The notes beneath the pieces were generated by a model. The model had not been told where the DNA came from. It worked only from the letters and a program-made list of their open reading frames with translations, and did not search any database. The translations under genes were made by a program, and so were the position numbers. This document shows positions 8,870 to 34,075 of a stretch of DNA of 64,000 nt, piece by piece; the first letter of the stretch is position 1, and every line of letters starts with the position of its first letter. The DNA is taken from assembly GCA_001794055.1 (NCBI GenBank), contig MGJB01000015.1, positions 4,264-68,263 on the forward strand, read 5' to 3'. The stretch is from Candidatus Yanofskybacteria bacterium RIFCSPHIGHO2_01_FULL_41_26. GTDB lineage: Bacteria > Patescibacteriota > Minisyncoccia > 2-02-FULL-40-12 > GWA2-44-9.

Positions 8870-8960
8870 TAGAATTTCCCAGCGAGAAATTCTACTCGGC
8901 TTCGGCTCGCTCATCCCTCACTGCGTTCGGGATACCTTGCCCGCTCGCCTGCAGATGGTC
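8870..8960 (-). repeat. Family-A GC-rich two-hairpin repeat (copy 1, inverted orientation)
   Basis: Reverse complement reads gaccatctgcaggcgagcgggcaagg-[hairpin atccc/gggat]-gagcgagccgaagccgag-[hairpin tagaatttc/gaaattcta]; same architecture at 14087 and 33990. Confidence 0.75.
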
Positions 8961-9176
8961 TATAGACTGACATGTTTTCAATTCCATAAATTTCCAACAA
9001 TAAAACCCAGATTTAGCTGGGGCTCATGTGTCCTGCTAAATTTATTTAACTTATTCGATTGTGATTTTTCTTAAAACCACTTATTTCAATTAAGGTTTTA
9101 ACACGGCAAGTGAATTTTTACAAACCGGTCCCTTCGACAAGCTCAGGGTTAACCGGATAAATTCTACTGTCTATAT

Positions 9177-9256
9177 TACCACCGCTTTTAGCGGGGCCCC
9201 GCCCAAGGCGGTGGCTACCTTATTCCTCTCCACTGTTTCCAATGAAGAGAGTAAAG
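9177..9256. repeat. Family-B structured element (two short hairpins + truncated long hairpin), copy A
   Basis: accaccgcttttagcggggccccgcccaaggcggtggctaccttattcctctc...; paralogous to 9797-9896. Confidence 0.7.
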
Positions 9257-9268
9257 AAATAATTTTGA

Positions 9269-9472
9269 TTAAAGTACTTCCAGGAAACTCCTTGCTTCTT
9301 TTAAAATCGCTTGTGCTTTTTTTAACTTTTCTATTCCGCCTTCTTGAATTGGCTCCGTTCCCTTTGTAGCTCTTTGCAACGATTGCTCAACAACTTTAAC
9401 ATCTTCTCTTATCTGAGCGACTATGTTTTCTCCTAAATATTCTTCTCTTTCAATTTTTGGTTCTTGTTCCAT
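9269..9472 (-). CDS. Hypothetical small charged helical protein (67 aa)
   Basis: ORF only; E/K-rich, no recognised domain. Confidence 0.4.
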   Translation of the reverse strand: MEQEPKIEREEYLGENIVAQIREDVKVVEQSLQRATKGTEPIQEGGIEKLKKAQAILKEARSFLEVL

Positions 9473-9548
9473 AGTTTTTTATTTAATGTATTAACACTTT
9501 ATTTCTTTCCACCTAAATAATAAAAAGAAAGCAATAATGTTCTAATCC

Positions 9549-9782
9549 TTACAAATTTTTGGTTAATTCTTCAATCTTTTTAAGTCTGTTAACCATATGA
9601 GCTTTTATCTCTCTTACCTCCTCGGAATCCACATCTTTTCCCTCTTTAAGTGTTGCAATTAATAAATCGCTATCTTTCCCAAAACTGGCCACTTCCTGAT
9701 CTATAATCCCCCTGCTTGTTTCACAATTTCTGATTTGCTCTTGTTTATCTGATATTAAATCTTTTTTCTTTTCTCTGTTCAT
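9549..9782 (-). CDS. Hypothetical small charged protein (77 aa)
   Basis: ORF only; 13-nt tandem duplication of start region (atgaacagagaac x2) just upstream. Confidence 0.4.
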   Translation of the reverse strand: MNREKKKDLISDKQEQIRNCETSRGIIDQEVASFGKDSDLLIATLKEGKDVDSEEVREIKAHMVNRLKKIEELTKNL

Positions 9783-9796
9783 GTTCTCTGTTCATA

Positions 9797-9896
9797 TTAC
9801 CACCGTTTTTAACGGGGCCCCGCCAAAGGCGGTGGCTACCTTATTCTCTCGTCCTAGTGAGTTCTATCGAACTAAGGCGAGAAGTAAGGGGGTAAG
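9797..9896. repeat. Family-B structured element, copy B (two hairpins + full long hairpin)
   Basis: accaccgtttttaacggggccccgccaaaggcggtggctaccttattctctcgtcctagtgagttctatcgaactaaggcgagaagtaagggggtaag; hairpin 1 covaries vs copy A (ccgc/gcgg -> ccgt/acgg). Confidence 0.75.
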
Positions 9897-10190
9897 TTAT
9901 TTTTCTGTCTGTGTAAGTTTGGCTACCTCTCTAAGAGATTCGTTTGCAGAATATACCTGATCATTATCTATTATTTTAGCAACTTCTTTTAAGATGACAC
10001 CACTAAACTTTATAGCTCCCACATCCTCTTTTTTTATTCCCGATACTGCCTGGGATAGTTCCTTTAATTCCTTAACCCTTGCCTCAAGTTTGGCTATTGA
10101 TTCGGCTATTGCCTCGTTACCCTCTTTAAACTCTCTGGCATCTTTTTGTTCAACCGATTCTTGTACTATTGTTGGATTTTCTATACTCAT
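9897..10190 (-). CDS. Hypothetical small protein starting MSIENPT (97 aa), paralog of 10572..10826
   Basis: Shares N-terminal 7 aa, upstream leader and downstream hairpin with 10572..10826; middle diverged. Confidence 0.45.
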   Translation of the reverse strand: MSIENPTIVQESVEQKDAREFKEGNEAIAESIAKLEARVKELKELSQAVSGIKKEDVGAIKFSGVILKEVAKIIDNDQVYSANESLREVAKLTQTEK

Positions 10191-10202
10191 GTTTTTATAT
10201 AA

Positions 10203-10262
10203 TTTACATTTTTAACTCTATATCGACCCCTGATGGCAGATTCAAGTTCATAAGAGCATCAA
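10203..10262 (-). pseudogene. Duplicated fragment encoding the last 20 codons of S10 ([20 protein letters not shown])
   Basis: Translation identical to rpsJ C-terminus at 10847-10909 with 9 nucleotide differences, all synonymous. Confidence 0.8.
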
Positions 10263-10472
10263 TTATTTTGACGCTATATTTAACGCGTCCCAAACTTTCT
10301 TCATTTGGACTTTAAGCTGGTCAACTTCCGCGCGAACATCAAGCTTTTTCTCAACTTCGTCAAATCGTCTGGAAACCATGCCTGCTAAATTAGCAACCTC
10401 ATCTTTAAGGTCTTCTTTAGTGGCCAATTTGCCTAATTGTTTGTCAAAATATTCTTTGGTAAGGTCTGACAT
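10263..10472 (-). CDS. Hypothetical small coiled-coil protein (69 aa)
   Basis: ORF only; heptad-like K/E/L pattern; stop overlaps start of duplicated S10 tail. Confidence 0.4.
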   Translation of the reverse strand: MSDLTKEYFDKQLGKLATKEDLKDEVANLAGMVSRRFDEVEKKLDVRAEVDQLKVQMKKVWDALNIASK

Positions 10473-10512
10473 GGTGGTTAAATATTATCTTGTTTAAACT
10501 GTTTTGTCTATC

Positions 10513-10570
10513 ACCTTATTCTCTCGTCCTAGTGAGTTCTATCGAACTAAGGCGAGAAGTAAGGGGGTAA
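10513..10570. repeat. Family-B long hairpin only, copy C
   Basis: accttattctctcgtcctagtgagttctatcgaactaaggcgagaagtaagggggtaa identical to part of copy B. Confidence 0.75.
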
Positions 10571-10571
10571 T

Positions 10572-10826
10572 TTATTTTTCAACAACTTCACCCAATAAAT
10601 TCGATGACTCTTCTATTAAATTTGCTGCTTGGCTCATACTATCGTTAATGCGCCCCAACTTAACAAGATCCTGTTCTGATAAATTTTCAAAATCACCCTT
10701 ATCAAAGATTTCTTTTAGGCGACTTAAGCAGGCCCTATTGCGATCAATTCTCAAAACCATGTCTCCTCTAAGCCTTTCACTCAAGTTAGTTTCTACTATT
10801 TTTTGTGTTGGATTTTCTATGCTCAT
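10572..10826 (-). CDS. Hypothetical small protein starting MSIENPT (84 aa)
   Basis: See 9897..10190; leader upstream overlaps true rpsJ 3' end. Confidence 0.45.
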   Translation of the reverse strand: MSIENPTQKIVETNLSERLRGDMVLRIDRNRACLSRLKEIFDKGDFENLSEQDLVKLGRINDSMSQAANLIEESSNLLGEVVEK

Positions 10827-10846
10827 ATTTTTATTTTCTATTAAAT

Positions 10847-11173
10847 TTACATTTTTAATTCTATATCCACACCTGATGGTAAATTTAGATTCATCAATGC
10901 GTCTATAATCTTCGGTGTCGGTGAATCTATATCTATGATTCTCTTGTGGGTACGCATTTCAAACTGCTCTCTAGAATTCTTGTCAATGAATGCCGACCGA
11001 TTTACTGTATACTTGGCAATCTCTGTCGGCAATGGCACAGGTCCAATCGGATGTCCGCCATATCTTTCAATGGTTTCAACAATCTGGGCAGCGGACTTGT
11101 CTATGATCTTATTGTCATAAGCCCGGAGCTTAATCCGTATTCTCTGTTTTATTTCTGTCGTTTTTTTAGCCAT
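10847..11173 (-). CDS. rpsJ: 30S ribosomal protein S10
   Basis: S10 core ([22 protein letters not shown]...); start placed at [14 protein letters not shown] rather than upstream MFFSSK. Confidence 0.93.
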
Positions 11174-11194
11174 TTTACTTGAAAAGAACATTTT

Positions 11195-11221
11195 GAAGCC
11201 CCGACTACCTGTCGGGGCTTC
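11195..11221. other. Perfect 11-bp stem hairpin in tuf-rpsJ spacer
   Basis: gaagccccgac-tacct-gtcggggcttc read directly. Confidence 0.7.
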
Positions 11222-11224
11222 AGT

Positions 11225-12427
11225 TTATTTATTAATTTTGGTCACGGCTCCGGCGCCAACAGTCTTACCACCTTCTCTGATGGCAAATCTCTGCTTTTCT
11301 TCCATGGCGATAGGGGCAATCAATTGAACTTTCAAATTTGCAGTATCTCCCGGCATGACCATTTCAGTTCCTTCCGGCAATAAGACTTCTCCGGTAACAT
11401 CGGTGGTTCGGAAATAGAATTGAGGTTTGTAACCCTTGAAGAATGGGGTATGTCTGCCACCTTCTTCTTTTGTTAAAACATATATTTCTGCCTCAAAATC
11501 GGTATGCGGGGTAATCGTACCCGGCTTGGCAAGCACTTGGCCTCTTTCTATGTCTTCTTTCTTGGTACCTCTCAAAAGTATTCCGGCATTGTCTCCGGCC
11601 AAACCTTCGTCTAATTGCTTATTAAACATTTCGATACCGGTGACAACAGTCTTCGCTGTCGGTTTAATTCCAACTATTTCAATTTCTTCGTTTAATTTAA
11701 CTTTCCCTCTTTCAATTCTTCCGGTTACAACAGTGCCTCTTCCTTCAATTGAAAAGATGTCTTCAATAGGCATAAGGAAGGGTTTATCGGTATCTCGGAC
11801 CGGATCCGGAAAGAAAGTATCCATTGCATTCATCAATTCCTTGATCGGCTTGGCATATTGATCATCTTTTGATTTAGATTCAAGGGCTTTCAATCCAGAA
11901 CCTCTGATAATCGGGGTTTTATCTCCGGGGAACTGATATTTATTCAAGAGCTCTCTGATTTCGGCTTCAACCAAATCAACCATTTCCGGATCATCAACCA
12001 TATCCACCTTGTTGAGGAATACGATTATATTAGGAACGCCAACCTGTCTGGCAAGCAAAATGTGCTCTCTTGTTTGAGGCATCGGGCCATCAGTGGCAGC
12101 GACAACCAATACAGCTCCATCCATCTGGGCAGCACCCGTGATCATATTTTTAATGTAATCAGCGTGGCCAGGAGCATCAACATGAGCGTAGTGGCGCTTG
12201 GGTGTCTCGTACTCGGAGTGGTGTAAGGCAATTGTAATACCTCTGGCTTTTTCTTCAGGAGCATTATCAATCTGATCTACTCCTTCCTCTCGGGCAGAAT
12301 AACCCTCGTCCTTCATTAAATTTAATACATGCAAAATACCCGCCGTTAGCGTAGTTTTACCGTGGTCAACGTGACCGATTGTGCCGACATTCAAGTGCAG
12401 CTTGTTTCTTTCAAATTTGCCTGCCAT
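11225..12427 (-). CDS. tuf: Elongation factor Tu
   Basis: 400 aa; [22 protein letters not shown] GTPase motifs. Confidence 0.98.
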
Positions 12428-12504
12428 CTTTTTATGATAACTTCGGAATCCAGAAGCTATCTATTATTAAACACGTAATATCTATTTTAGCGGAATACCA
12501 TAGA

Positions 12505-12819
12505 TTAGTCAACTGTTATCATCTTCTCTTCCTTTTCTATCTCGCTCTTTAGGGCCAAAATGTCTTTGTTTATCCTTTCCAGTATCTCAAGTTCGTTTTC
12601 AGGAAGAGCTGGTTTTGCGGGCATGGACCGGTCTTCGGAGTGACTTATTCCGTTGGTAACGGCATGATTTATCTTTATTTCCTTCTCTTTACCCCCCAAA
12701 ATTAAATCCTTATACATCTCATAACTTAGGATAGCAAAAGATGGCTCGCCATTATCCAACACCAAAACCGCCGTAGAGTGCTTCACCAGTTTTTTGAGTT
12801 CATCTACATTCATTGACAA
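12505..12819 (-). CDS. Phd/YefM-like antitoxin-domain protein with C-terminal extension (orphan)
   Basis: N-terminal AVLVLDNGEPSFAILSYEMYKDL matches Phd/YefM fold pattern; no adjacent toxin ORF. Confidence 0.5.
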   Translation of the reverse strand: MSMNVDELKKLVKHSTAVLVLDNGEPSFAILSYEMYKDLILGGKEKEIKINHAVTNGISHSEDRSMPAKPALPENELEILERINKDILALKSEIEKEEKMITVD

Positions 12820-12996
12820 ATTATTTGTTATATGTAATAATTGCTATATCCCGATAATGAGCACTGGGAGTAGGGTTTGGGGGAAGCCCCGACCGCCTTT
12901 GATAACCAGCCCATCCTTATTGGGATTTTTTGTTTCTACAACGATACAAATCTATATTATAGTATTAAAATATCAAAAAAAATGCAAACAAACGCT

Positions 12997-13131
12997 CCCC
13001 AGCCACATACCCCCGACTCGACCGATAGTCCTCGGCTTCCTGCGAGCCTCGGCTGTCTTCATGCTCAGCCCCTCACCAAGCACCAAGCTTCGGGGCCTGC
13101 GCAAGTTCTCCCTGGGAGTATGTGGCTGGGG
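12997..13131. repeat. GC-rich structured element closed by perfect 14-bp inverted repeat
   Basis: ccccagccacatac (12997-13010) pairs with gtatgtggctgggg (13118-13131); interior contains gcccc...ggggc hairpin and cgaagccgag-like motif in reverse. Confidence 0.6.
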
Positions 13132-13207
13132 GCTCAATTATTTTTCAAAAGAAACAAAAAAAGCGCCTTGGATGTCTTACGACAATCCTCGGCGCTGACT
13201 CAATTAA

Positions 13208-13906
13208 TTAGTCTTGGCCACGACTGACCTTTTTCCTCAAATCTCGATTTTGCTCAAAACGTTTTTCCCAAGTTTCAAAAAATGTCCATTTCGAAGAAGC
13301 TGAAACATTTGCCTCATTAATAATCGTCTCTAGATCATGTCTAAGTTCCAGTGCTACAGCCCCTCGATAACGCTGCCTATCGGAAATAATTTGTTTATAA
13401 AGGGCACAAATAGCTGCAGAAAGTTCTTGGATCTTTGCCTTATCATCCAAACGTTCTCTCCCCAATTCATCAATCCGGTCAAGCATCGCCTGAAGCGACG
13501 GATAGGTATTAATAAACTGAAGAGCTACTTCTACTTTTAGACCTTGAAGAACTTGTTCCAGGCAAACCCAGTCACCAGTCTGCTCACGACGCCAACTTCC
13601 GGCTATTCTCCAAAAGTCGGCTGCCGGACCATAGATCGCGCTTCGCCGACGAAATGGACCACGGTTAATCTCAATCACCGAACCATCGACACAAGACCAA
13701 TCAATCGCCCTTAACCTATTTGGACAAGAATAAACTTGTAAACCATAGCATGGATGATGTTGCCTATAATATATTTTCCGAAAACCCTTGAGCCAGCGGA
13801 AAAACTTTCTCCATTCATCCTTAAACAACAAGACAAGAACAGAGACTAACGCAAGCACACTTAAAACAACGAGTGCCCAAAATGACACGAAAAGAAAGCT
13901 ACTCAT
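13208..13906 (-). CDS. Hypothetical membrane-anchored protein (232 aa)
   Basis: N-terminal TM helix; no recognised domain; GC-richer than surroundings. Confidence 0.5.
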   Translation of the reverse strand: MSSFLFVSFWALVVLSVLALVSVLVLLFKDEWRKFFRWLKGFRKIYYRQHHPCYGLQVYSCPNRLRAIDWSCVDGSVIEINRGPFRRRSAIYGPAADFWRIAGSWRREQTGDWVCLEQVLQGLKVEVALQFINTYPSLQAMLDRIDELGRERLDDKAKIQELSAAICALYKQIISDRQRYRGAVALELRHDLETIINEANVSASSKWTFFETWEKRFEQNRDLRKKVSRGQD

Positions 13907-14086
13907 CTAACACCTCCAGCTCTGGGCCTGTTTCATCCCAGTGGTGGTTGTGGCTGCGAACGGCCATTCCGCCCGGAATTGGGCGAGACTTTCCATCCGG
14001 AGCAGTTAACGAACGGACTAAATCATACTACATTAAAACAAAAAAATCAAGATTTAACTCAAGAGCGAGGGCTTTGTGCAATTAGA

Positions 14087-14175
14087 GACCATCTGCAGGC
14101 GAACGAGCATGGTGTCTCGCAAAGCGAGACGAGTGAACCGAAGCCGAGAAAAATCGCCCGCTGGGGCGATTTTTC
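14087..14175 (+). repeat. Family-A GC-rich two-hairpin repeat (copy 2); second hairpin is a bidirectional terminator downstream of fusA
   Basis: gaccatctgcaggcgaacgagcatgg-[gtctcgc/gcgagac]-gagtgaaccgaagccgag-[aatcgccc gctg gggcgatt]+ttttt. Confidence 0.75.
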
Positions 14176-14204
14176 GTGTCGAGAATTGCATAAAGCCCGA
14201 GCGA

Positions 14205-16322
14205 TTATTTTTTGCCTTCTTTGATTAACTCCGCAATATTATTCGGCACCGGTTCGTAGTGATCAAACTCCATGTTGAATGTACCGCGGCCTTCAGTCAG
14301 AGACCTCACTGAAGTAGCATAACCAAACATTTCCGAGAGAGGAACCCTTGAGTCAATGACTTTTAAATTCATCGGGCTTCGGTCGTTGATACTTATGATT
14401 TGCCCTCTTCGAGATGAAATGTCTCCTGTGGCTTCACCCATAAAATTATCAGGAACAATAATTTCAACTTTCATAATTGGTTCCAATAAGACCGGCTTTG
14501 CTCGTTTGATGGCTTCTTGAAGTGCCATAGCTCCGGCAATTTTGAAAGCAATTTCAGACGAGTCAACGTCATGATAAGAGCCGTCATATAGGGTAACCTG
14601 TAAATCCACGATCGGAAATCCGGCGAGAACTCCTTTATCCAAAGCTTCTTTTACGCCCTTTTCAACTGGAGTAATAAACTCTTCAGGAATTGCTCCGCCC
14701 TTGATGGCATCAATAAATTCAAACCCCGCTCCCCGCTCTTTGGGCTCAACGCGCAGCCAAACATGGCCGTATTGTCCCCGACCTCCGGATTGTTTAATGT
14801 ATTTGCCTTCGGCTTGAGCTTTGTCGGAAATAGTTTCTTTGTAAGCAACCTGTGGACGACCAACATTTACGTTCACGCCAAACTCTCTCTTCATACGGTC
14901 AACGATAATTTCCAAATGCAATTCTCCCATTCCGGAAATAATTGTTTCTGCGGTCTCTTCATCGCTTTTTATTCTGAAAGTCGGATCCTCATCCGAAAGC
15001 TTTCTTAAGGCAATGCTCATCTTTTCCTGGTCGGCTTTGGTCTTCGGTTCTATTCGCAAAGAAATAACCGGTTCTGGAATTTCAATTCCTTCAAGTAAAA
15101 CTGGTTTTGCCGGATCGCAAAGAGTATCACCTGTTTTGGTGTCTTTTAATCCGACGGTAGCGGCAATATTTCCCGCATAAACTTCTTTTATCTCTTTCCG
15201 CTCGTTTGCATGCAAAAGCACAATACGGCTGATTCTTTCTTGTTGACCGCTTCTTGTATTTAAAACGTAGGAGCCGGAGGTAAGTTTTCCGGAGTAAACC
15301 CGAAAAAAAGTTAAAGCTCCGACAAACGGATCAGTTGCAGTTTTAAAAGCTAATGCAGTAAATATGGCATTATCATCCGGCTCCACTAGTATTGCTTCTC
15401 CAGTTTTTTTATCAGTCACCTTTGTCGGAGGCACATCTAATGGCGACGGCAGATAATATGCAACAGCATCCAAAACAAGTTGCACGCCTTTGTTTTTTAA
15501 AGCCGAACCACAGAACACGGGAAATATTTTATTGGCGATAGTTGCTTTTCTAAGTATCTTGCGAAGTTGATCAAGACCTATTTCTTTACCTTCCAAATAT
15601 TCAGACATTGTCGCATCATCATGTTCAACTATTTTTTCTATAGTTATGGCTCTTTCTTTTTTTGCTTCTTCAAGAAGGTAATCCGGAATCTGACCCTTTA
15701 TAACCTTCTCCCCCTTTTCACCTTCAAAGGTGTAATAATCTAAAGTTAAAAGGTCAATAATACCCTTAAACTGATCTTCGTGGCCATCAGGTATTTGAAG
15801 TTTTACAGCATACGGAGACAATCTTCCCAAAATTGACTGGAAGGAACGATCAAACGAAGCTCCCAATCGGTCAAGTTTATTAATAAAACAAACCCTTGGA
15901 ACTTTGTAGTCGTCAGCATATCTCCAGTTTGTTTCGGATTGAGGTTCCACTCCGGCAACTCCGTCAAAAACAACAACCGCCCCATCCAAAACACGCAAAG
16001 AACGCTTTACTTCAATAGTAAAGTCAATATGTCCCGGCGTATCAATAATATTTAATTTTACTTTTTCAGCTCCGCCAGCTGACGGATTATCTTTTGCATC
16101 GGTAGGAGTCCAGTATGCAGTAGTTGCGGCAGCGGTAATAGTAATGCCTCTTTCTCTTTCCTGTTCCATCCAATCCATTACAGTATCACCTTCATGAACT
16201 TCTCCTATTTTATGAGAGATTCCTGTGTAAAACAAAATACGCTCTGATGTGGTCGTCTTGCCAGCATCAATGTGAGCGATGACTCCTATATTTCGAATTT
16301 TATTAATTGGATAATCAGCCAT
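14205..16322 (-). CDS. fusA: Elongation factor G
   Basis: 705 aa; AHIDAGKTT, DTPGHIDF, full EF-G domain set. Confidence 0.98.
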   Translation of the reverse strand: MADYPINKIRNIGVIAHIDAGKTTTSERILFYTGISHKIGEVHEGDTVMDWMEQERERGITITAAATTAYWTPTDAKDNPSAGGAEKVKLNIIDTPGHIDFTIEVKRSLRVLDGAVVVFDGVAGVEPQSETNWRYADDYKVPRVCFINKLDRLGASFDRSFQSILGRLSPYAVKLQIPDGHEDQFKGIIDLLTLDYYTFEGEKGEKVIKGQIPDYLLEEAKKERAITIEKIVEHDDATMSEYLEGKEIGLDQLRKILRKATIANKIFPVFCGSALKNKGVQLVLDAVAYYLPSPLDVPPTKVTDKKTGEAILVEPDDNAIFTALAFKTATDPFVGALTFFRVYSGKLTSGSYVLNTRSGQQERISRIVLLHANERKEIKEVYAGNIAATVGLKDTKTGDTLCDPAKPVLLEGIEIPEPVISLRIEPKTKADQEKMSIALRKLSDEDPTFRIKSDEETAETIISGMGELHLEIIVDRMKREFGVNVNVGRPQVAYKETISDKAQAEGKYIKQSGGRGQYGHVWLRVEPKERGAGFEFIDAIKGGAIPEEFITPVEKGVKEALDKGVLAGFPIVDLQVTLYDGSYHDVDSSEIAFKIAGAMALQEAIKRAKPVLLEPIMKVEIIVPDNFMGEATGDISSRRGQIISINDRSPMNLKVIDSRVPLSEMFGYATSVRSLTEGRGTFNMEFDHYEPVPNNIAELIKEGKK

Positions 16323-16498
16323 TTTTTATAACTTGCTGGTCGCCCTGCTAGGCCTTCGGCCCTTAAGCAGTAAGCTCTTGTCTATCTACTTAGTTAAAAT
16401 CTCCACTTCTCCTTCATCATGTTTATATATGTTTCAGTCGAATGCTCAATTTTGCCTCGTATTTATCCAAGCCAGCTACGTTCTAAACTTTATTAACA

Positions 16499-16762
16499 CT
16501 ATGCGTGATTTTTCACTTTTTTCAGCCAAATTTTCTTAAAAAACGGCATGGTCAGTGTCGATAACATAAATGCTACGGCAGGCACTACCGCATTAAACCA
16601 TGGTCGCGAAATATCCATCACCCACAGATAAACACTGATTGCTAAATAGGTAAATAGTGTCAATAAAACCCGTCTCATCAAGCTTGTTTCCCAAGCCTTA
16701 TCAACTTCTACTTTCATGTTCCTGCTTTCTATTTTTTGTATCCTTTCTTCTAAATTATACAT
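16499..16762 (-). CDS. Small 2-TM membrane protein (87 aa)
   Basis: Two hydrophobic helices after amphipathic N-term; inserted between rpsG and fusA. Confidence 0.45.
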   Translation of the reverse strand: MYNLEERIQKIESRNMKVEVDKAWETSLMRRVLLTLFTYLAISVYLWVMDISRPWFNAVVPAVAFMLSTLTMPFFKKIWLKKVKNHA

Positions 16763-16771
16763 TTTTAAAAA

Positions 16772-16930
16772 CTTATGCGTTGGCCAAGTTCAAGGCAAAA
16801 GATGAGTATCGGGCGAGCCATAGTGTGAACTATGGTGAGAACGAAACGGAATCTTTTAACGCAGAAATTGGTCAACCGATAGGCGAGCCGCAAGCCCTTA
16901 ATACATTGGGCTTGGCTCGCGCATAAGTTT
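16772..16930. repeat. ~160-nt GC-rich element flanked by imperfect 17-bp inverted repeats
   Basis: cttatgcgttggccaag ... cttggctcgcgcataag; internal ccatagt/actatgg hairpin and ggcgagcc motifs. Confidence 0.55.
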
Positions 16931-16933
16931 TTT

Positions 16934-17401: not shown

Positions 17402-17407
17402 GTTATA

Positions 17408-19015: not shown

Positions 19016-19023
19016 TCAGCCAT

Positions 19024-25911: not shown

Positions 25912-28740
25912 TTAATTACACACCCCTGTCGTGGCGAAACAATTTGGGCATGAATAGCATGAGCCGGCGCGAACCATGAGCGTTCCACATTGGACGCAAG
26001 CTGGAGCATCTGCAATTAAAACATGTCCGGGGGCCTTGTTGTTTCCGCCAACAGAAGTAGAAGCAAGAGGCTTAGAAACCAGTTCAGCAAGCAACGAATC
26101 ACTCTTAGATTCATGGGCAACCGCCTCTTTTATCTCAACGGGCTCCATGGAAGCATGATCGGGTCCGAATAATTCTTCTCTATCCTCCGGCTTCAGATAT
26201 TTCATTCCTAAATATCTGAAAACATAATCCGTTACGGATTTAGCTGTTGGAATGTTCGGATTATTCGTAAAACCGGCAGGATCAAATCTTACGTCTTTAA
26301 ATTTTCTCACCAGTGTCTTTAGAGGGACTCCGGATTGAAGACAGACTGATATAAGCGTAGCAATAGTATTGAACAATCCTGATATTGTGCTCCCCTCTTT
26401 GGCCGCGATTAAAAATGTTTCTCCGGGTTTCATGGTATCGGGATAGAATCCGACCGTAAGATAACTTTCAAACCCTCCGACATTGAATTTATGAGTGATA
26501 GATGGTCTTTCGTCGGGTAGTTTAATTCTCGTATAGCCGTTAACTTTTTCTATAAATTGATTGTTCTCTTCTTTTTTGGTGTTTAAGGGTTGGATTGATT
26601 TGGAACCGTCGCGATATACAGCGATAGCTTTCAATCCTAAACGCCAGCCCTCCATGAAAACATTTTTAATATCATCCACCATGGCCTCAGCCGGCAAATT
26701 GACGGTCTTAGATATCGCTCCGGAAATAAACGGTTGAGCGGCGGCCATCATTTTCACATGGCCCATATAATGAATACTTCTCTTACCGTTTTGGGCTTTG
26801 AACGAGCAGTCAAAAACTGATATGTGTTCCTCTTTCAAATGTGGAGCGCCTTCTATGGTTTCTTTTTCCAATAAGTAGTTGGATATTTCTTCTGTCTGTT
26901 CATTTGAATAGCCCAATCTCCTCAAAGACAAGGGGATGTGATTATTAACCAGCTTCAAAGTGCCTCCTCCAACCAGCTTCTTATATTTAACGAGAGCAAG
27001 TTCCGGCTCGATCCCAGTAGTATCGCAATCCATTAAAAAAGCAATTGTTCCGGTCGGTGCCAATACTGTCATTTGGGAATTTCGTATGCCATACTTCCTT
27101 CCAAGATCCAAAGCATCGTGCCACACAAGACGGGAAACCGTCTGCAAATCTCTATCTTCAACTCCCAATATTTCTGAAGCTTCAAATAATTTTTCCGACT
27201 CGCCAAGATGTTTTGCCACAACTCTCAATGTTGGTTCACGATTTAATTCATATCCAGCAAAAGGCCCTTTAATATCCGATAAAACAGCCGACATTCTGTA
27301 AGCCTCTCCGCACATTAGAGATGTTATTTGGCCAGCCAGAATCCTTCCTTTTTCCGAGTCATAAGGAAGACCTAAAACCATTAAGGTTGCTCCAAGATTT
27401 GCGTAGCCTAGACCAAGTTGTCGAAAATTTCTAGAATTTTCACCTATCTTTTCTGTTGGATACGAGGCGTTGTCTACAATTATATCCTGAGCGGTAATCA
27501 TTACATCAACCGCCTTTCGAAACAATTCAACATCAAATTTTCCGCCCATTTTCAAAAATTTAACCAAATTCAAAGAAGCCAGGTTACAAGCGCTATTATC
27601 CAAATGCATATATTCACTACACGGATTGGAAGCGTTTATTCTTCCCGTATTAGGGCAAGTGTGCCATTCATTAATAGTAGTATCATACTGCATGCCCGGA
27701 TCAGCACTATGCCAGGCCGCATCGGCAATCCAGTCCATCAATTCTCTTGCTTTTATAGTTTCCACAATTCCACCGGTAGTAACGCCGATTAAGTTCCAAT
27801 AGCCATCAGCTTGCACCGCTCTCATGAATTCATCATTCACCCTGACTGAGTTATTGGCGTTCTGATATGGCAACAATGTGTAGGGATCAAAAATGTCAGC
27901 AGTAATTGAATCTTTAATTCCGCTGCTGATAAGCGCTTTGGTCATATCCTCAATTATTTTTTTGCAATAAACAAAATTCTTTATATCTGGGTGATCGGCA
28001 TTCAAAACAACCATCTTAGCTGCCCGCCGAGTAGTCCCGCCAGAACGAATCGAATTAGCAACTCCATCGGCCCCTTTCATAAATGAAACCGGACCGGATG
28101 AATAACCACCTTTTGACAAAGGCTCCTTGGATGAACGGAGCTTGGAAAGATTTGTACCGGCGCCAGAACCATATTTGAATATCCAACCCTCATCACGATA
28201 CCAGTCAAGAATTGATTGCATGTTGTCTTCTACGGCCAAAATAAAACAAGCTGAACACTGAGGACGTTCATGAACGCCGACATTAAACCAAATTGGACTG
28301 TTAAAGGCCGCATATTGATTTATCAATATCCAAGTCAGATCTAAAATAAAGTTTTCACAATCTTCAGATGAAGCAAAATAATCGTCTTTGAGTCCCCAGT
28401 AGCCGATCGTCTTTGCCACTCGGTCAATCATCTGTTTGGCGCTGTACTCTCTATCTTGAGTGCCAAGTTGACCTCTGAAATATTTAGAAGCGACAATATC
28501 CGTGGCCGTCTGACTCCAAAAACTTGGAACCTCAACGTCTTTCTGTTCAAAAACAACCGTTCCGTCACCTTTAGTGATCTTGGCCGTTCTTGTTTCCCAA
28601 ATAATTTCGTCATACGGATGTTTGGAACCAAAAAAACGAGGCCACTTAAGACCGCGTTCAGCTAAACCATTGTCAGTAAATAAATTTTCTTCCATGTATG
28701 TTCCACTATAGAAATTTATTCTATCTTTTTCAACCCCCAA
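25912..28740 (-). CDS. nrdJ: Class II (adenosylcobalamin-dependent) ribonucleotide reductase with C-terminal Cys-rich tail
   Basis: 942 aa; long alignment-like similarity to NrdJ-type RNR; C-terminus CVQCGTLMVRAGSCYSCPNC. Confidence 0.85.
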   Translation of the reverse strand: MGVEKDRINFYSGTYMEENLFTDNGLAERGLKWPRFFGSKHPYDEIIWETRTAKITKGDGTVVFEQKDVEVPSFWSQTATDIVASKYFRGQLGTQDREYSAKQMIDRVAKTIGYWGLKDDYFASSEDCENFILDLTWILINQYAAFNSPIWFNVGVHERPQCSACFILAVEDNMQSILDWYRDEGWIFKYGSGAGTNLSKLRSSKEPLSKGGYSSGPVSFMKGADGVANSIRSGGTTRRAAKMVVLNADHPDIKNFVYCKKIIEDMTKALISSGIKDSITADIFDPYTLLPYQNANNSVRVNDEFMRAVQADGYWNLIGVTTGGIVETIKARELMDWIADAAWHSADPGMQYDTTINEWHTCPNTGRINASNPCSEYMHLDNSACNLASLNLVKFLKMGGKFDVELFRKAVDVMITAQDIIVDNASYPTEKIGENSRNFRQLGLGYANLGATLMVLGLPYDSEKGRILAGQITSLMCGEAYRMSAVLSDIKGPFAGYELNREPTLRVVAKHLGESEKLFEASEILGVEDRDLQTVSRLVWHDALDLGRKYGIRNSQMTVLAPTGTIAFLMDCDTTGIEPELALVKYKKLVGGGTLKLVNNHIPLSLRRLGYSNEQTEEISNYLLEKETIEGAPHLKEEHISVFDCSFKAQNGKRSIHYMGHVKMMAAAQPFISGAISKTVNLPAEAMVDDIKNVFMEGWRLGLKAIAVYRDGSKSIQPLNTKKEENNQFIEKVNGYTRIKLPDERPSITHKFNVGGFESYLTVGFYPDTMKPGETFLIAAKEGSTISGLFNTIATLISVCLQSGVPLKTLVRKFKDVRFDPAGFTNNPNIPTAKSVTDYVFRYLGMKYLKPEDREELFGPDHASMEPVEIKEAVAHESKSDSLLAELVSKPLASTSVGGNNKAPGHVLIADAPACVQCGTLMVRAGSCYSCPNCFATTGVCN

Positions 28741-28993
28741 AAAAAGTTGATAAGTTGCGAAAACAAACAGACTCGCTCCGCCCTACACCTTATTTCAGCC
28801 CGTTACGATTGCTCCAGCGGCAATCTCCACTTGTCCTCACGACGGCGGGTTCTTCTGTCGTCTCATACTGTGCTTAGATTATCATATTCACATGACGGAA
28901 AGCCTGAACCTTGAATAAATTTTATAACCTACTCCTTCAGAACACCAAGCCCGCCTGTTGCGGGTCTGAAATAAGATGCCGGGCTGCGCTTAA
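28741..28993 (-). other. ~250-nt GC-rich structured 5' leader of nrdJ
   Basis: Long-range pairing cttatttcag ... ctgaaataag (10 bp) plus several internal hairpins (acccgc aaca ggcggg; gattgc...gcaatc). Confidence 0.5.
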
Positions 28994-29512
28994 CTAAATA
29001 CTATTTTCTTTGAGTGCTTTCTCTATGATTTTATTAATAAATTCTGTTTTGCCTGAATTGTATTTATCAAAATCATCTACAAACTCCTCTGCCAGTCGTA
29101 TTTTAAGTTCTTCATAATTTTTTCTAGCCTCGGAATTATTTCTTAGATAATCTCTAAACAATATGTGGTCGCGCCAATATATACTGGTAGGTTCAGTAAG
29201 AGACAGATGATACCAAAGATTCGGAGTTCTTTTTTGGAAGAACTTTCTGTCTGGAGTTTGTTGTTCAAGCTCCGGTGCATATTTATATTCCAAAGTTTCC
29301 AGAGATTCTATATATTTTTTAACAGCATTCAAATTATTAACAGCAGCCATCATATCTATAACCGGTTTTGAATCTAATCCCGGTATGGCAGTGCTCCCCA
29401 TATGCTCTATTCTCAAATCTCCAATTACAGAAATAATTTTCTGTTTTTCTTCTTCAAATAACCTTGGCCAATCTTTAGAGTATTTATCCAGTTTAATTGT
29501 CTTGAGTCCCAT
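28994..29512 (-). CDS. GrpB/UPF0157 family nucleotidyltransferase-like protein
   Basis: 172 aa; GrpB-like N-term (KDWPRLFEEEKQKI...EHMGSTAIPGL). Confidence 0.65.
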   Translation of the reverse strand: MGLKTIKLDKYSKDWPRLFEEEKQKIISVIGDLRIEHMGSTAIPGLDSKPVIDMMAAVNNLNAVKKYIESLETLEYKYAPELEQQTPDRKFFQKRTPNLWYHLSLTEPTSIYWRDHILFRDYLRNNSEARKNYEELKIRLAEEFVDDFDKYNSGKTEFINKIIEKALKENSI

Positions 29513-29836
29513 TAATGTATCTTATATTTCCTATCCCTGAAAGTCTATAGAATACTTAATTGATGTTCAAAACCGAGCTTTGAACATTCTATTTAAAAAC
29601 TCACTGCGTTTTCCAAGTTTGAGACAAAAGCGAAAACCATAACACTTTTTACATACCCGCAGGCGAGTCATGAACTGAAAGACGGACAACAAAGAGTCCG
29701 AAGTAATAGGTCAAACGTCGAGTGAAACGAGGAGGCAAGTGCGGGTTACCTGTTATTTTGGTAACTCTTTACAGACATCTTGAGGTGAATGACGAAGACG
29801 AGGACTGGATGGAAAAAGTGTTATGGCTGAAGTGAC

Positions 29837-30991
29837 TTATTTATTCATCTTTCTTCGAATGAAAGCCGGAATATCAAATTCTTCGTCATTCACCGAAGAA
29901 TCTACGAGTTCTTTGACTGCGGGTGTGCCGTTAATTTGGGAACTGGGTTTTCTGGAAACATTATCAAACATATTTTGCATGTTTGGTTTTCCTACCATTC
30001 CGTTCATTGGTAATTTGGGAGCATTTGGATAGCCGTTATTAAATCCTGTCGCCACAACAGTAACTTTCAATTCGCCTTTTTTGAGTTTGTCATCTATGAC
30101 CGCCCCAAAAATTACCCTGGCATCAGGATCAATGTGTTCGGTTATTATTCTAGCAGCTTCATTTATTTCAGCCATCGCCATATCAGTCCCCCCGGATACA
30201 TTGAATAATACTCCGCGAGCCCCATCTATCGAAACCTCGAGCAGCGGAGAATTGATCGCCATCTTGGCAGCTTCTATCGCTCTATCCTCCCCGATTGATT
30301 TACCTATGCCCATAAGCGCCGAGCCAGAACTGGCCATGATCGTTTTAACGTCGGCAAAATCAACATTGATTATCCCCGGGATAGTTATCAGATCGGAAAT
30401 ACCCTGAACGCCCTGCCTCAAAACATCATCTACTATCCCGAACGATTCCAGTAAAGGAGTTTTTCTGTCTATAACCGACAAGAGCCGATCGTTAGGAATG
30501 GTGATTAAAGCATCCACTTTTTCCCTCAAAATATTCCACCCATCTTCGGCTATTCTTGATCTTTGGGGCCCTTCAAAACTGAAAGGTTTGGTCACAACGG
30601 CTACTGTTAGCGCTCCGACATCTTTTGCAATATCCGCAACCACCGGCGAAGCTCCCGTTCCTGTTCCACCACCCATTCCTGCCGTAATAAAAACCATATC
30701 GGCACCTTTTAGGGCATTCATTATTTCTTCTTTCGTGTCTTCGGCAGCTTGCTTGCCTATTTCAGGATTCATTCCCGCGCCAAGACCGCGGGTTAAACTT
30801 TTTCCGATGTGGATTTTACTTGTGGCAGCGCTGTTGTGCAAAGCTTGCGCGTCGGTATTAATAGCAATAAATTCTACGCCATGAATTCTGGCTTCAATCA
30901 TCCTTGCCAAAGCATTGCAACCTGAACCGCCTACGCCGACGACTTTAATCCTGGCAAATGTTTCAAACGGAGGTTTAACTATTTGTCCCAT
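29837..30991 (-). CDS. ftsZ: Cell division GTPase FtsZ
   Basis: 384 aa; GGGTGTG tubulin signature. Confidence 0.97.
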
Positions 30992-31064
30992 AATATCTGT
31001 GTATTATCATAAATAAAAAAGCCACGCAAGAGACCGGAGCTTCGCTGTGGATAACTTTGGCCTA

Positions 31065-32312
31065 CTACGGCGAGAAATTTTTTAACCAACTCAATACCTT
31101 CTTAAATGAAGCCCCATCGGCAAACTTGCCGTTTCCACCCTTGGAACCTTTGTTTCCATTAAACTCTTCATCTATTCCCCAGATTATCAGTCCAGCCGCA
31201 ACAGCAAAAGAGGGGCCATCCAAATTATCAACTACTCCCGCCAGATTTAAAGGCTTAGCGATTCTTACGGGCAATCTCAATTTGTCTTTCACCATAGCCG
31301 CAAGGCCTGGTAAATTTGCCCCTCCTCCGGATAAAACAACTCCGGCCGGAAGCATTCCTTTGGAAATCTTCTTTAATTCATTAGTCACCATTTCCAATAA
31401 CTCTTGAGCGCGCGCATCAACAACTCTTATTAATTGTTTTCGAGGCAGAATAAAATCTTTTTCCGACATCAATTCAGACAAATCTATATTCCCTCTTTTA
31501 CGCAAGTCCTCTCCTTCTGAAGTCATTCCGTGTTCAACCTTTACTCTTTCGGCAACATCCATTGAAGTTCTTAACGCAACAGCCAGATCAGAGGTAATGT
31601 GTTTTGAACCAACCGGCAAAATAACACTGTGAAGCAGATCGGCCTCTTCAAAAACAGTAAGCGTAGAAATGCCTCCTCCAAAGTCAAGATTCAAAACTCC
31701 ATATTCTTTTTGGTTTTTATCCAAAACCGCAAGAGACGAGGCCAAAGGAGCAAAAACCAATCCGGCCACTTCTATATTATTTTCATTTACACACTTAGCG
31801 ACATTTCTTAAATAAGGAGAAAGCCCATCAATTATAAAAACCTCTGCCTCGAGGCGAACACCTTTCATCCCCAATGGATTTTTAACATATTCAGTTCCAT
31901 CTACTATATAGTTGCGCGGTATAACATGAATTATCTCTCTGTTAGCCGGCAAACTCACAACCGATGCCGCTTGTAAAACTCTGTCAATGTCATTCTGCGA
32001 TATTTCCCCATCAATCCGTGAAACGGCAATAACTCCTCGGGATATTTGATTTTTGATATGAAGCCCGTTCACGGCAAGATAAGCTCTCCTGATCTTGGCG
32101 CCGGCCATCGCTTCGGCTCTCTGGACAGCCGCTTGAACATTGTTAATTGTTTCCTCCATATCAACTACCATGCCCCGCCTTAAACCATTTGAAATGGCAC
32201 TGCCAATTCCTAAAATCTCGGTCGCCAAAGTATCGCGGTCTATTTTTGCGACTACTACTTTGATTTGCGAGTTTCCTATGTCAATTCCGGAGATTATATA
32301 TGGTCTTGCCAT
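31065..32312 (-). CDS. ftsA: Cell division protein FtsA
   Basis: 415 aa actin-like ATPase upstream of ftsZ. Confidence 0.9.
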   Translation of the reverse strand: MARPYIISGIDIGNSQIKVVVAKIDRDTLATEILGIGSAISNGLRRGMVVDMEETINNVQAAVQRAEAMAGAKIRRAYLAVNGLHIKNQISRGVIAVSRIDGEISQNDIDRVLQAASVVSLPANREIIHVIPRNYIVDGTEYVKNPLGMKGVRLEAEVFIIDGLSPYLRNVAKCVNENNIEVAGLVFAPLASSLAVLDKNQKEYGVLNLDFGGGISTLTVFEEADLLHSVILPVGSKHITSDLAVALRTSMDVAERVKVEHGMTSEGEDLRKRGNIDLSELMSEKDFILPRKQLIRVVDARAQELLEMVTNELKKISKGMLPAGVVLSGGGANLPGLAAMVKDKLRLPVRIAKPLNLAGVVDNLDGPSFAVAAGLIIWGIDEEFNGNKGSKGGNGKFADGASFKKVLSWLKNFSP

Positions 32313-32746
32313 TTTTCTAAAATTTTATTTTCCAAATCGAACATTTTTTTCTTGTCACTGATGGATTTCTCATGATCATAGCCCAATAAATGTAAGAATC
32401 CATGTATTGTCAGCCGTACCAATTCTTTTTTCAAACTAATATTTTGTCTTTCCGCTTCCTTAACTGCAAAAGGCAGACAAATAAATATGTCCCCTAAAGG
32501 AAGTATACCATATTTTTTAAATCGCGACTCTTCCAGCGGAAAAGACAACACATCAGTAACTTCATTTTTACCCCGATATTGCTTATTGAGTTTTTTTATC
32601 TTCACTTCTCCCACCAAATTAAGACTCATCTCCACATTTTTGTCTTTTATTCTAACTTCTTTGATTCCCGTACTCAAAATCTCACTAAAAAACCTATCGC
32701 CGGGAGATTTGTCTGATGTATTGTTTTTGAAAACTAAATCTAACAT
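32294..32746 (-). CDS. ybeY: rRNA maturation endoribonuclease YbeY
   Basis: HGFLHLLGYDHE metal-binding motif. Confidence 0.88.
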   Translation of the reverse strand: MLDLVFKNNTSDKSPGDRFFSEILSTGIKEVRIKDKNVEMSLNLVGEVKIKKLNKQYRGKNEVTDVLSFPLEESRFKKYGILPLGDIFICLPFAVKEAERQNISLKKELVRLTIHGFLHLLGYDHEKSISDKKKMFDLENKILEKWQDHI

Positions 32747-32806
32747 CAGGAAGATTTTATCACACTAAATAAAAAATCACCACAGACATGGCGATTTTTT
32801 ATTTAG

Positions 32807-33250
32807 TTATTTAGATAATTCTTCTTTCACTATCCGACTAACTATTTGACCGTCGGCTTTGCCTTTTACCTTGACCATTACTGCTCCGATTAGCTTGCCC
32901 ATTTCTTTAACATCTTTCACGCTCATGTCGGCAATTGTTTTCTTGACCTCACTTCTTACATTTTCTTCCGACATTTGCTCCGGCATATAAGCCATTAACA
33001 TTTCGGCTTCTTTTCTTTCTCCTTCGGCAAGCTCTGGTCGTCCGCCTTTTTCATATTGTTCTGTGGCATCTTTTCTTTTTTTTATCTCCGACGCAATAAC
33101 CGCCACCACATCATCGTCGTTAAGCTCGCTTCTTTTTTCAATCTCTTTATTTTTAACCGCAGACAAAACCATACCCAGTAAAGTTCTTTTCTGAGAATTA
33201 CCGCTCTTTAAAGCATCCTTCATTTCCTGTTGGATTTTTTCTTTTAACAT
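32807..33250 (-). CDS. GatB/YqeY domain protein
   Basis: 147 aa; YqeY-like N-term and helical architecture. Confidence 0.7.
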   Translation of the reverse strand: MLKEKIQQEMKDALKSGNSQKRTLLGMVLSAVKNKEIEKRSELNDDDVVAVIASEIKKRKDATEQYEKGGRPELAEGERKEAEMLMAYMPEQMSEENVRSEVKKTIADMSVKDVKEMGKLIGAVMVKVKGKADGQIVSRIVKEELSK

Positions 33251-33251
33251 T

Positions 33252-33518
33252 TTATAGATCTAATTTTTGTTTCATTTTGCGTTTCTCTTCTTCAAAGGTA
33301 TCTTCATCGTATTTGCCTAATTTTTCCAATTTCCTTCTTAGCTCGCTTAGATGCAAACCCATGATAGCAGCATTTTTTTCTTTTCTTTCGGTTTGTTTCT
33401 TTTCCCTGTGCTGAGATTTTTTAGCTTTAATCAAAACTCCGCTTTGCTGAACAAAACGATTAAAACGCCTTAATAAACTGCCCACGCTTTCATTTGGTTT
33501 TCTTTTTACTTCAACCAT
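33252..33518 (-). CDS. rpsU: 30S ribosomal protein S21 with C-terminal extension
   Basis: LRRFNRFVQQSGVL resembles S21 LRRFKR...GVL core. Confidence 0.75.
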   Translation of the reverse strand: MVEVKRKPNESVGSLLRRFNRFVQQSGVLIKAKKSQHREKKQTERKEKNAAIMGLHLSELRRKLEKLGKYDEDTFEEEKRKMKQKLDL

Positions 33519-33604
33519 AATTAACCTCCCCTCAAATGCTGTATATAGTATACAGTATTTTGTATTCAGTATAAAAATTTATACGAAACACAAGAGACTA
33601 AACA

Positions 33605-34024
33605 CTATTTTACGATTTTCGAACCAAGAGGTTTACCACCCAAAAGATGGATATGAAGATGAGAGACGAGTTTACCGCCATGCTCACCTTCGTTGATAAT
33701 GAGTCGGTAACCTTTTTCGTGAACGCCTAATTGTTTTGCAACTTTTTCGGCGACAAGAAGCGCTTGACCTAAAAGTGCCGCATCCTTTTGGTTGAAATCA
33801 TGAAGAGCTTCATAATGCTTCTTGGGAACAACAAGCACGTGCACCGGGGCTTGAGGATTAATATCCCTTATCACCCAAAACTCCTCGTCCTTATAAACAA
33901 CGTCGGCCTTCAACTCTCCTTTTATGATTTTACAGAAGACATCCTGTATCATAAGTTTTCGGAGAAATCGTAGAGATAGGGGTTTTGAAACCATCTGCAG
34001 GCGAGCGGGCAAGGTGGTCGCCAC
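33605..34024 (-). CDS. HIT family hydrolase
   Basis: HLHIHLLGG histidine triad. Confidence 0.88.
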   Translation of the reverse strand: MATTLPARLQMVSKPLSLRFLRKLMIQDVFCKIIKGELKADVVYKDEEFWVIRDINPQAPVHVLVVPKKHYEALHDFNQKDAALLGQALLVAEKVAKQLGVHEKGYRLIINEGEHGGKLVSHLHIHLLGGKPLGSKIVK

Positions 34025-34075
34025 AGGCGACCGGGCGAGCCGAAGCCGAACTGGAATTCTCGCCGGGAATTCCAG
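33990..34075 (+). repeat. Family-A GC-rich two-hairpin repeat (copy 3)
   Basis: accatctgcaggcgagcgggcaagg-[ggtcgcc aca ggcgacc]-gggcgagccgaagccgaa-[ctggaattc tcgccgg gaattccag]. Confidence 0.75.

Follow-up and report, generated by a model that had tools for sequence, protein, structure and literature searches.

What kind of element is a GC-rich, hairpin-forming repeat that recurs between genes, in either orientation, in a genome of the candidate phyla radiation? The stretch analysed here, which we call the window, comprises 64,000 nucleotides of contig MGJB01000015.1 (positions 4,264 to 68,263, forward strand) from Candidatus Yanofskybacteria bacterium RIFCSPHIGHO2_01_FULL_41_26, and it holds three intergenic copies (c1, c2 and c3) of a dispersed structured repeat that we call family A. 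A sequence-only reading had located the three copies and had described hairpins that differ in sequence while keeping their pairing, and both observations stand. Family A behaves like known structured intergenic repeats and has the conservation pattern of a functional RNA. We tentatively favour, at a little less than an even chance, the view that it is a mobile or turning-over dispersed module acting as a folded single strand. The working form would be the folded strand that carries the CCAUCUGCAGG motif, either as RNA or as single-stranded DNA.

Fold and conserved core of the unit

Each full unit measures 133–139 nt (139, 136 and 135 nt in c1, c2 and c3) and folds into a Y, in which a 24-bp outer stem, P1, encloses a three-way junction, a composite arm, P2, and a hairpin, P3. 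Statistics were computed on an alignment of eight sequences fitted to this model. Standard pairs occupy 93.4% of cells, or 96.7% with the extended structure, and double, compensatory changes are found in 35–36 of 41–46 pairs. None of 500 shuffles reached the observed pairing or double-change measures, and in a control in which the 3′ partner was slid by 1–3 columns pairing amounted to only 35–49%. Conservation follows the opposite course, with a majority frequency of 0.92 in unpaired columns against 0.74 in paired ones. Mean pairwise identity is 0.91 in the 5′ core and 0.93 in the 3′ core, compared with 0.72 in P3, 0.65 in P1 and 0.57 in the distal part of P2.

Two further observations concern the strand. 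Read on the motif strand, G-U and U-G together account for 16 cells and A-C and C-A for one, and the motif strand folds 3–18 kcal/mol more stably than its complement in seven of seven full-length units. The greater stability of the sense fold holds in c2, c3 and the copy on contig L132 (L numbers denote the compared loci and contigs), all of which are antisense to their neighbouring genes. The fold is strand-specific, whichever way the neighbouring genes run. When 146–149 nt around each window copy were folded and compared with dinucleotide shuffles, the free energies were −67 to −69 kcal/mol (z −6.5 to −8.4), and the outer stem, whose sequence differs among the three copies, formed 15–20 or more pairs.

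P1, of about 24 bp, is AU-rich and is interrupted, three pairs below the junction, by a conserved purine–purine internal loop; of the 19 non-standard cells, 15 are A-G or G-A mismatches. The junction strands J1/2, J2/3 and J3/1 read CAUCUGCA, GA and GU (8, 2 and 2 nt). The P2 arm runs from GGC-GAG-CGG-GCAAGG through a variable hairpin to AGCGAG-CCG-AA-GCC. It is followed by P3, a hairpin of 12–13 bp with the apex C-U-C-G-C-N-G-G-G, and by the 3′ arm of P1, which pairs with the 5′ arm. The CGCNGG loop had been credited to two copies only; it is in fact common to all. A consensus of P1, TTRAAARYAAATCRGT..GCAGAC, is common to c1 and the copies on L064, L084, L131 and L132.

RNAalifold proposes GGC/GCC and CGG/CCG pairs that lengthen P2 into a long arm. 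Proximal P2 probably does pair in this manner, GGC..CGG with CCG..GCC, leaving CAUCUGCA, GA and GU as the true junction. The stretches first described as flanks are indeed conserved, but part of them is thus probably helical. Because these proximal pairs are invariant, they draw no support from covariation and are unproven. In a divergent subfamily, introduced below, the same stretch is a regular 9-bp helix, GGCAAGCCG/CGGCUUGCC, which would argue for the proximal pairing; GCAGGC..GGU, the apex (as CGCUGG) and GU are retained there as well. A pseudoknot between the P3 loop CUCGC and the core GCGAG was considered and rejected, since the changes found in c2, in L064 and in the variant show no covariation with it.

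The coordinates given in the sequence-only reading were right for the core and missed the outer stem. A covariance model, R1, was built from six copies; the seed alignment of a second, R2, includes the variant on L143, and a third, R3, covers the core only. All six copies score 124–150 bits with R1, which has no other match in the window. Copy c1 occupies 8843–8981 on the minus strand (139 nt; 142.5 bits with R1, E 1.8e-32; fold −67 kcal/mol, z −8.3). Its P1 5′ arm, TTGAAAACATGTCAGTCTATAGAC, at 8958–8981 pairs with the 3′ arm at 8843–8866. The conserved 5′ core (8935–8957; 91% mean pairwise identity among copies) is made up of the junction strand CAUCUGCA at 8950–8957, GGCGAGCGG at 8941–8949 and GCAAGG at 8935–8940, and the predicted partners of its GGC and CGG, CCG and GCC, lie at 8898–8905 as invariant pairs. 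The distal P2 hairpin (8912–8934) varies in sequence and keeps its pairing, all P2 pairs being changed on both sides. The conserved 3′ core (8896–8911; 93% mean pairwise identity) contains AGCGAG, CCGAAGCC and the junction GA, with an exact CCGAAGCCGA. P3 spans 8869–8895, with the conserved apex CUCGCUGGG; 10 of its 12 pairs covary, and its apical C-G and U-G pairs and the CGCNGG loop are conserved.

Copy c2 lies on the plus strand at 14066–14201 (136 nt; 124–128 bits with the covariance models; z −8.4), with P1 at 14066–14089 and 14178–14201, the junction strand at 14090–14097, the conserved core at 14098–14112 and 14132–14147, P2 at 14113–14131 and P3 at 14148–14175. The corresponding parts of c3, also on the plus strand (33968–34102; 135 nt; 140–145 bits; z −6.5), are P1 at 33968–33991 and 34079–34102, the junction strand at 33992–33999, the core at 34000–34014 and 34034–34049, P2 at 34015–34033 and P3 at 34050–34076.

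Copies, neighbours and occupancy of sites

How widely does the family occur? The 14-mer CCATCTGCAGGCGA is found exactly three times in the 64 kb (8945–8958 on the minus strand, 14089–14102 and 33991–34004 on the plus strand), where 0.15 occurrences are expected and none of 100 shuffles reached three; CCGAAGCCGA is exact at the same three copies. A genome collection scanned with a loose 20-base two-block pattern gave mostly chance matches in GC-rich genomes, and among the matches listed the only real copies were L064:4118–4252 and L084:5241–5373, both from the Yanofskybacteria genome RIFCSPLOWO2_02_FULL_41_13. A metagenome scan with a 24-base pattern returned five matches: one due to chance, two duplicates of L064 and L084, and two new copies, L132:2193–2331 and L131:1–97, the latter cut by the contig end. 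The wider search that the sequence-only reading had suggested therefore yielded four more canonical copies, seven in total, as well as a divergent subfamily. Its member at L143:14525–14648 scores 25.2 bits with R1 and 74.7 bits with R2, whose seed includes it, and a second, truncated copy lies at about 70–150 of L064. All known copies are on Candidatus Yanofskybacteria contigs or metagenome contigs. Candidatus Yanofskybacteria bacterium RIFCSPLOWO2_01_FULL_41_34, a groundwater member of the candidate phyla radiation, encodes an L3 protein identical to the window's.

No further copy was present in about 13 kb of additional sequence from the genome to which the window belongs, and the core-only model R3 found none in about 245 kb of related loci, including any without an outer stem. 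Two viral contig scans gave no match at all, and neither did a phage BLAST search. Twenty-four viral matches to GAGCGAGCCGAAGCCGAG were all coding, ERAEAE-type matches in GC-rich phages and not family A. Because these searches of the own genome, related loci and viral and phage sequence gave no more, we regard family A as low in copy number and confined to a narrow lineage, three copies being present in about 80 kb here. Among population contigs, c1 is identical in all carriers, and family A copies show no variation.

The copies have diverse neighbours. Copy c1 lies between a terminator-like hairpin (9021–9006) and the start of rplC (8818), in the orientation of rplC. Its closest relative, the L132 copy, has the same unusually long P2 and occupies the same rpsJ–rplC site, inverted with respect to c1; the L3 of its organism shares only about 66% identity with that of the window. 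Copy c2 lies 4 nt beyond the fusA stop codon (14205–14207), antisense to fusA, and a promoter-like TTGATT-17-TATGAT (14050–14022) follows downstream of it on the gene strand. Copy c3 fills the spacer between the hisS stop codon (34097–34099), which it overlaps, and the start of a HIT-family gene (33952), from which its end is 16 nt away; it is antisense to both. Elsewhere, the L084 copy lies 60 nt past the stop codon of the reverse transcriptase of a diversity-generating retroelement (DGR), and the L064 copy has a FemAB-family gene on one side and a Mur ligase gene on the other. Relative to their neighbours, four copies run in the sense and three in the antisense direction, which upholds the earlier judgement that the family is independent of orientation and not a gene-specific cis-regulator. 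GC skew is negative nearly throughout the window (one 4-kb bin, at 56–60 kb, is at +0.001). As it does not switch sign around c1, c2 and c3, copy orientation does not follow replication.

The comparison of insertion sites with relatives, also suggested earlier, revealed presence and absence between species. In three sister species (L3 about 80% identical), no copy of family A occurs within 10 kb of rplC, and neither the c1 nor the c2 site carries one. In L135 a different, plain long hairpin stands at the fusA site, where L137 has an empty spacer of 10 bp. Relatives of the L132 organism have rpsJ–rplC spacers of 750 bp without family A. In L143 family A occupies the spacer between the reverse transcriptase gene and dsbD; in the syntenic L145, whose reverse transcriptase is 79% identical, that spacer contains a Y-shaped repeat unrelated to family A. 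The same intergenic sites in relatives are occupied by unrelated long-stem elements, and other structured families are found at different loci in different species. These site comparisons lead us to conclude that structured intergenic inserts of several families are gained and lost at operon boundaries in these genomes.

A consensus scan found no sigma-70-like promoter upstream of any window copy on its own strand and no terminator at any copy on either strand; no U-tract follows P1. The second hairpin of c2 had been taken for the fusA terminator. P3 of c2 does resemble one by eye (A-tract, GC stem, U-tract), but the scan does not call it. No open frame is kept across copies, with stops in several frames and frame shifts that accompany P2 length, and a search with a chimeric six-frame peptide gave no score, the overlapping 81-aa open reading frame (ORF) itself not being in the protein collection.

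The loci that carry family A contain other features of their own. On L064, a near-consensus promoter, TTGACA-17-TATTAT, immediately precedes the truncated subfamily copy (segment 37–150); the canonical copy is followed by about 780 nt of GC-rich sequence that is non-coding and has no Rfam match (within 3800–5037), and the AT-rich 200 nt upstream of that copy are 83% identical to L145:6367–6571. L084:3211–5180 (equivalent to L143:9045–11014) is a complete DGR, in which the variable repeat (VR, 3211–3363) lies at the 3′ end of the target gene, the template repeat (TR) is at 3638–3790, bAvd is encoded at 3806–4129 on the opposite strand, and the reverse transcriptase at 4140–5180; 19 of 24 TR/VR differences fall at TR adenines. 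The Y-shaped repeat of L145 (11040–11215) has a 17-bp outer stem and inner hairpins of 22 and 12 bp, and a second copy, 94% identical, lies 3 kb away at 14054–14155. The window's rpsJ–rplC spacer of about 2 kb (8819–10846) contains small ORFs without a Pfam match, two of which are missing from contig L125, as well as a 68-bp direct repeat (9838–9905 and 10513–10580). It also contains two 36-nt palindromes, CCACCGC..GCGGTGG (9179–9214 and 9800–9835), which interrupt AAGGTAG|TAATA, a sequence that is uninterrupted in relatives (L135 at about 9765, L140 at about 1752, L132 at about 1905). Near c2, the promoter-like sequence on the minus strand (13910–14050; compare L135:6118–6250) is followed by a leader of about 110 nt conserved between species. 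The leader precedes a 232-aa ORF without a Pfam match (13208–13906) and may be a cis-regulatory RNA.

Further structured elements are scattered over the window. That at 12997–13131 is GC-rich (0.63) and has an 18-bp outer stem, a branched interior and a fold z-score of about −5.5; of the nine differences that separate the window from contig L120 over 18.8 kb, three are located in it. The sequence-only reading had hinted at a superfamily based on GAAGCCGAG. The motif does recur in this element, but the element scores only 18–23 bits with the family A models, mostly through its long outer stem, and the link is weak. An GAAGCCGAG palindrome inside pth could not be recovered, since no coding palindrome contains an exact GAAGCCGAG and the ORF at 35403–35993 encodes a signal peptidase; pth was not located. 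Upstream of this signal peptidase gene, 36034–36140 forms an outer stem with inner hairpins, and its 71-nt core is 89% identical to L183:6886–6956, an unrelated locus in the fusA–tuf region of another species. An 88-nt long-stem element in the rplE–rpsH spacer (2476–2563) has a relative in the rplP–rpmC spacer of another species (L183:14604–14725). Six of 14 differences between the window and L121 (18.8 kb) fall within it, and the arms in L121 are more perfectly complementary; this element is a mutation hot spot with palindrome-perfecting changes. Three more intergenic elements (16767–16932, 28775–28989 and 29637–29826) have inverted arms of 18–27 nt and interiors of 112–161 nt; the first lies in the 610-bp rpsG–fusA spacer (16323–16933), and the same genes are 6 bp apart in L135. 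Finally, a LOOT RNA (RF03000, 66.5 bits; 55281–55401, minus strand) is situated next to a 581-aa serine recombinase gene (56795–58540, plus strand) and a tRNA gene (58415–58485, minus strand). Over the same coordinates the gene table of L146 lists the recombinase and that of L147 only small ORFs; judged from these gene tables alone and not by sequence comparison, the region may be a strain-variable integrated element.

Weighing the explanations

Why do we favour a mobile or turning-over module? This reading jointly covers the orientation-independent, strand-specific fold, the lack of own promoters, and the presence and absence of copies between species. We propose that the invariant junction, proximal P2 and the P3 apex together would make up a single compact recognition or active site, in which these parts would bind one another or be bound by a protein. 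Copies would be gained, lost and replaced at intergenic boundaries, and the conserved parts would reflect the needs of the element's own propagation or processing rather than those of neighbouring genes. The strand-specific fold may be kept in either gene orientation because conservation would serve the element itself. Mobility, a single-stranded intermediate and a binding partner are all features that we infer from these patterns.

Several observations weigh against this proposal. Only eight sequences stand behind the statistics, in an alignment fitted to the model. Copies within the genome are old and divergent, not near-identical, and few in number; the outer stems of c2 and c3 are unrelated to those of the other copies, with a minimum P1 identity of 0.50. 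There are no target-site duplications, and no direct repeat longer than 3 nt lies beside any canonical copy; a 6-nt CTAAGC beside the variant and GAGCGA on both sides of c2 adjoin extra G-C pairs and tandem G-A mismatches that extend the outer stem. A parent insertion sequence or transposase was found neither in the window nor in the compared loci, and no mobilising enzyme was identified, the window having only the serine recombinase about 23 kb off. The c1/L132 pair at one site could equally represent an old resident element. Moreover, other hairpin elements here are population-level mutation hot spots with palindrome-perfecting changes, so part of the compensatory change may be templated mutation rather than selection, although templated mutation accounts neither for the wobble bias nor for an unpaired core that is nearly invariant.

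The main rival, which we consider somewhat unlikely, is a structured RNA, resident and functional, that is encoded by several paralogous copies and produced from the motif strand. It could be a small RNA that binds a protein, or a ribozyme, small and self-cleaving or of another kind, with P1 as a processing stem (for RNase III, for example) and with the junction, the proximal P2 arm and the P3 apex forming what would be a tertiary core. An invariant junction surrounded by covarying stems is the typical pattern of a functional RNA, and the G-U strand bias and the more stable sense fold in every copy fit the same account. So do the core, about 91–100% identical between organisms with an L3 identity of only about 66%, the elements kept by the divergent subfamily (GCAGGC..GGU, the CGCUGG apex, GU and a proximal P2 in the form of a 9-bp helix), and the invariance of copies among population contigs. 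Yet no promoter or terminator consensus lies beside the copies on their own strand, there is no recurrent neighbour gene, Rfam has no match, ribozymes included, and c1 and c2 are missing at the same sites in three sister species. Copy c3, moreover, lies on the strand opposite to its neighbours, overlaps the hisS stop codon and leaves 16 nt to the next start codon. The multi-copy small-RNA gene envisaged by the sequence-only reading meets the same difficulty, as promoters are not visible and c3 fills the whole hisS–HIT spacer. A passive hairpin in host transcripts at operon boundaries, serving as terminator, insulator, RNase III site or 3′-end stabiliser in the manner of REP (repetitive extragenic palindromic) or ERIC sequences, seems to us quite unlikely. 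In such a case orientation would carry little weight because a long stem forms either way, and the placements are suggestive: c2 follows the fusA stop codon by 4 nt and precedes the next promoter, c3 lies at the hisS stop codon, the L084 copy lies 60 nt past that of the reverse transcriptase, and c1 and the L132 copy stand between a terminator-like hairpin and rplC. Relatives have other long hairpins at the same boundaries, and the window has many long-stem intergenic elements. A passive role nevertheless leaves about 45 near-invariant unpaired or proximal nucleotides unexplained, as well as a 16:1 wobble bias in copies that the host transcript reads antisense; no U-tract follows P1, no terminator is called at any copy, and the 10-bp spacer between fusA and the next gene in L137 is empty.

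Two more specific functions can be set aside with greater assurance. An accessory RNA or boundary element of a DGR is suggested by the L084/L143 copy, 60 nt downstream of a DGR reverse transcriptase with a true TR/VR pair and bAvd. This idea is close to refuted, and we hold it to be most improbable: a reverse transcriptase is near one of seven loci and none is detectable in the window, the syntenic L145 DGR (reverse transcriptase 79% identical) has no family A, and L084 has no match to an Rfam reverse transcriptase motif. Just as improbable is an invertible DNA switch, in which a recombinase would flip a segment bounded by inverted repeats. The 24-bp inverted repeats around a core of about 90 bp would suit it, as would the opposite orientations of the element at the rpsJ–rplC site of two species. 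The orientation is, however, the same in every population contig, no promoter consensus lies in or beside the core, the arms tolerate G-T wobbles and differ between copies, and there is no invertase nearby.

We also entertain, as an unlikely but consequential extension, a new RNA class of the candidate phyla radiation with a catalytic or high-affinity protein- or ligand-binding core, which would ride a mobile module between operon boundaries, including those of the ribosomal-protein super-operon. It could be a self-cleaving ribozyme or the RNA partner of a mobilising or processing enzyme. What is the relevance of such an element? Bacteria of the candidate phyla radiation have genomes of about 1 Mb or less, and in this small genome several families of GC-rich structured inserts nevertheless occur at operon boundaries (rpsJ–rplC, rpsG–fusA, fusA–tuf). 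Family A is the clearest case: in the genome it behaves like a dispersed repeat, and it is conserved in the manner of a functional RNA. Should its core be a binding or catalytic site, the family would constitute a new class of RNA from a lineage that has been little explored; should the family be mobile, it would be of a type without the usual hallmarks of terminal repeats and duplications and would point to a new mobilisation route. Either way, the covariance models built here provide a handle for finding more copies.

Comparison with known systems

Does family A belong to any described family? At the gathering threshold, Rfam 15 recognised only LOOT and four tRNAs in the whole window. Around c1 and c2, hits at E values up to 10 were noise only, riboswitches and ribozymes included, and the related loci gave no match. 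Full-text literature on repeats and RNA motifs in Patescibacteria and Parcubacteria yielded no description of family A. The sequence-only reading had leaned towards a miniature inverted-repeat transposable element (MITE) or a REP-like repeat, and neither assignment survives: there are no target-site duplications, no terminal inverted repeat common to all copies and no near-identical copies, and for a REP sequence or bacterial interspersed mosaic element (BIME) the units, at 133–139 nt, are of the wrong size, branched and solitary rather than clustered (no genome-wide search for a RAYT gene was made). A hammerhead is rejected because the junction CAUCUGCA / GA / GU misfits CUGANGA / GAA / H and no hammerhead model matches. 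Integron attC sites (RYYYAAC / GTTRRRY) do not fit outer stems that begin with TTGAAAAC and end with GTTTTCAA or are unrelated, and no arrays are present. Intrinsic terminators were dismissed as none is called at the copies by the scan, as was a DGR component on the grounds given above. An inverton was discarded on the single orientation of each copy in all population contigs and the lack of a promoter consensus inside.

The ERIC/IRU, Correia (CREE) and BOX/RUP families of Enterobacteria, Neisseria and pneumococci, respectively, are structured intergenic repeats of 100–150 bp. Family A resembles them in size, in its strictly intergenic position in either orientation, in ends that form a long stem, in patchy insertion and in the lack of coding capacity. 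There, conservation is similar over the whole length of a copy, and the Correia and MITE types have fixed terminal repeats and target duplications. Compared with them by description only, family A differs in its near-invariant centre, three varying stems, very low copy number and lack of duplications. REP sequences are single hairpins of 20–40 nt with a conserved GTAG head, clustered and mobilised by RAYT proteins (HUH/Y1). What family A would have in common with REP/RAYT and IS200/IS605 systems is recognition of a strand-specific, folded single strand, no target duplications and tolerance of G-T wobbles. IS200/IS605 insertions follow the replication strand, whereas c1 is opposite to c2 and c3 within a uniform GC skew, and no Y1 transposase was identified.

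On the RNA side, the architecture recalls that of the type I hammerhead and the purine aptamer, in which an open closing stem and two hairpin arms meet at short invariant junction strands. As in small three-way-junction RNAs, the conserved apical loop could dock on internal loops of the other arm, and, like bacterial self-cleaving ribozymes, the family is multi-copy and orientation-free. Orphan multi-copy RNA motifs such as RT-1 to RT-19, the DUF3800-associated motifs and LOOT were described by Weinberg et al. 2017 (PMC5737381). Although family A fits none of their models and is not consistently associated with any gene, it resembles these motifs in being a candidate RNA recognised by comparative analysis, largely from metagenomic sequence, with one copy beside a reverse transcriptase gene.

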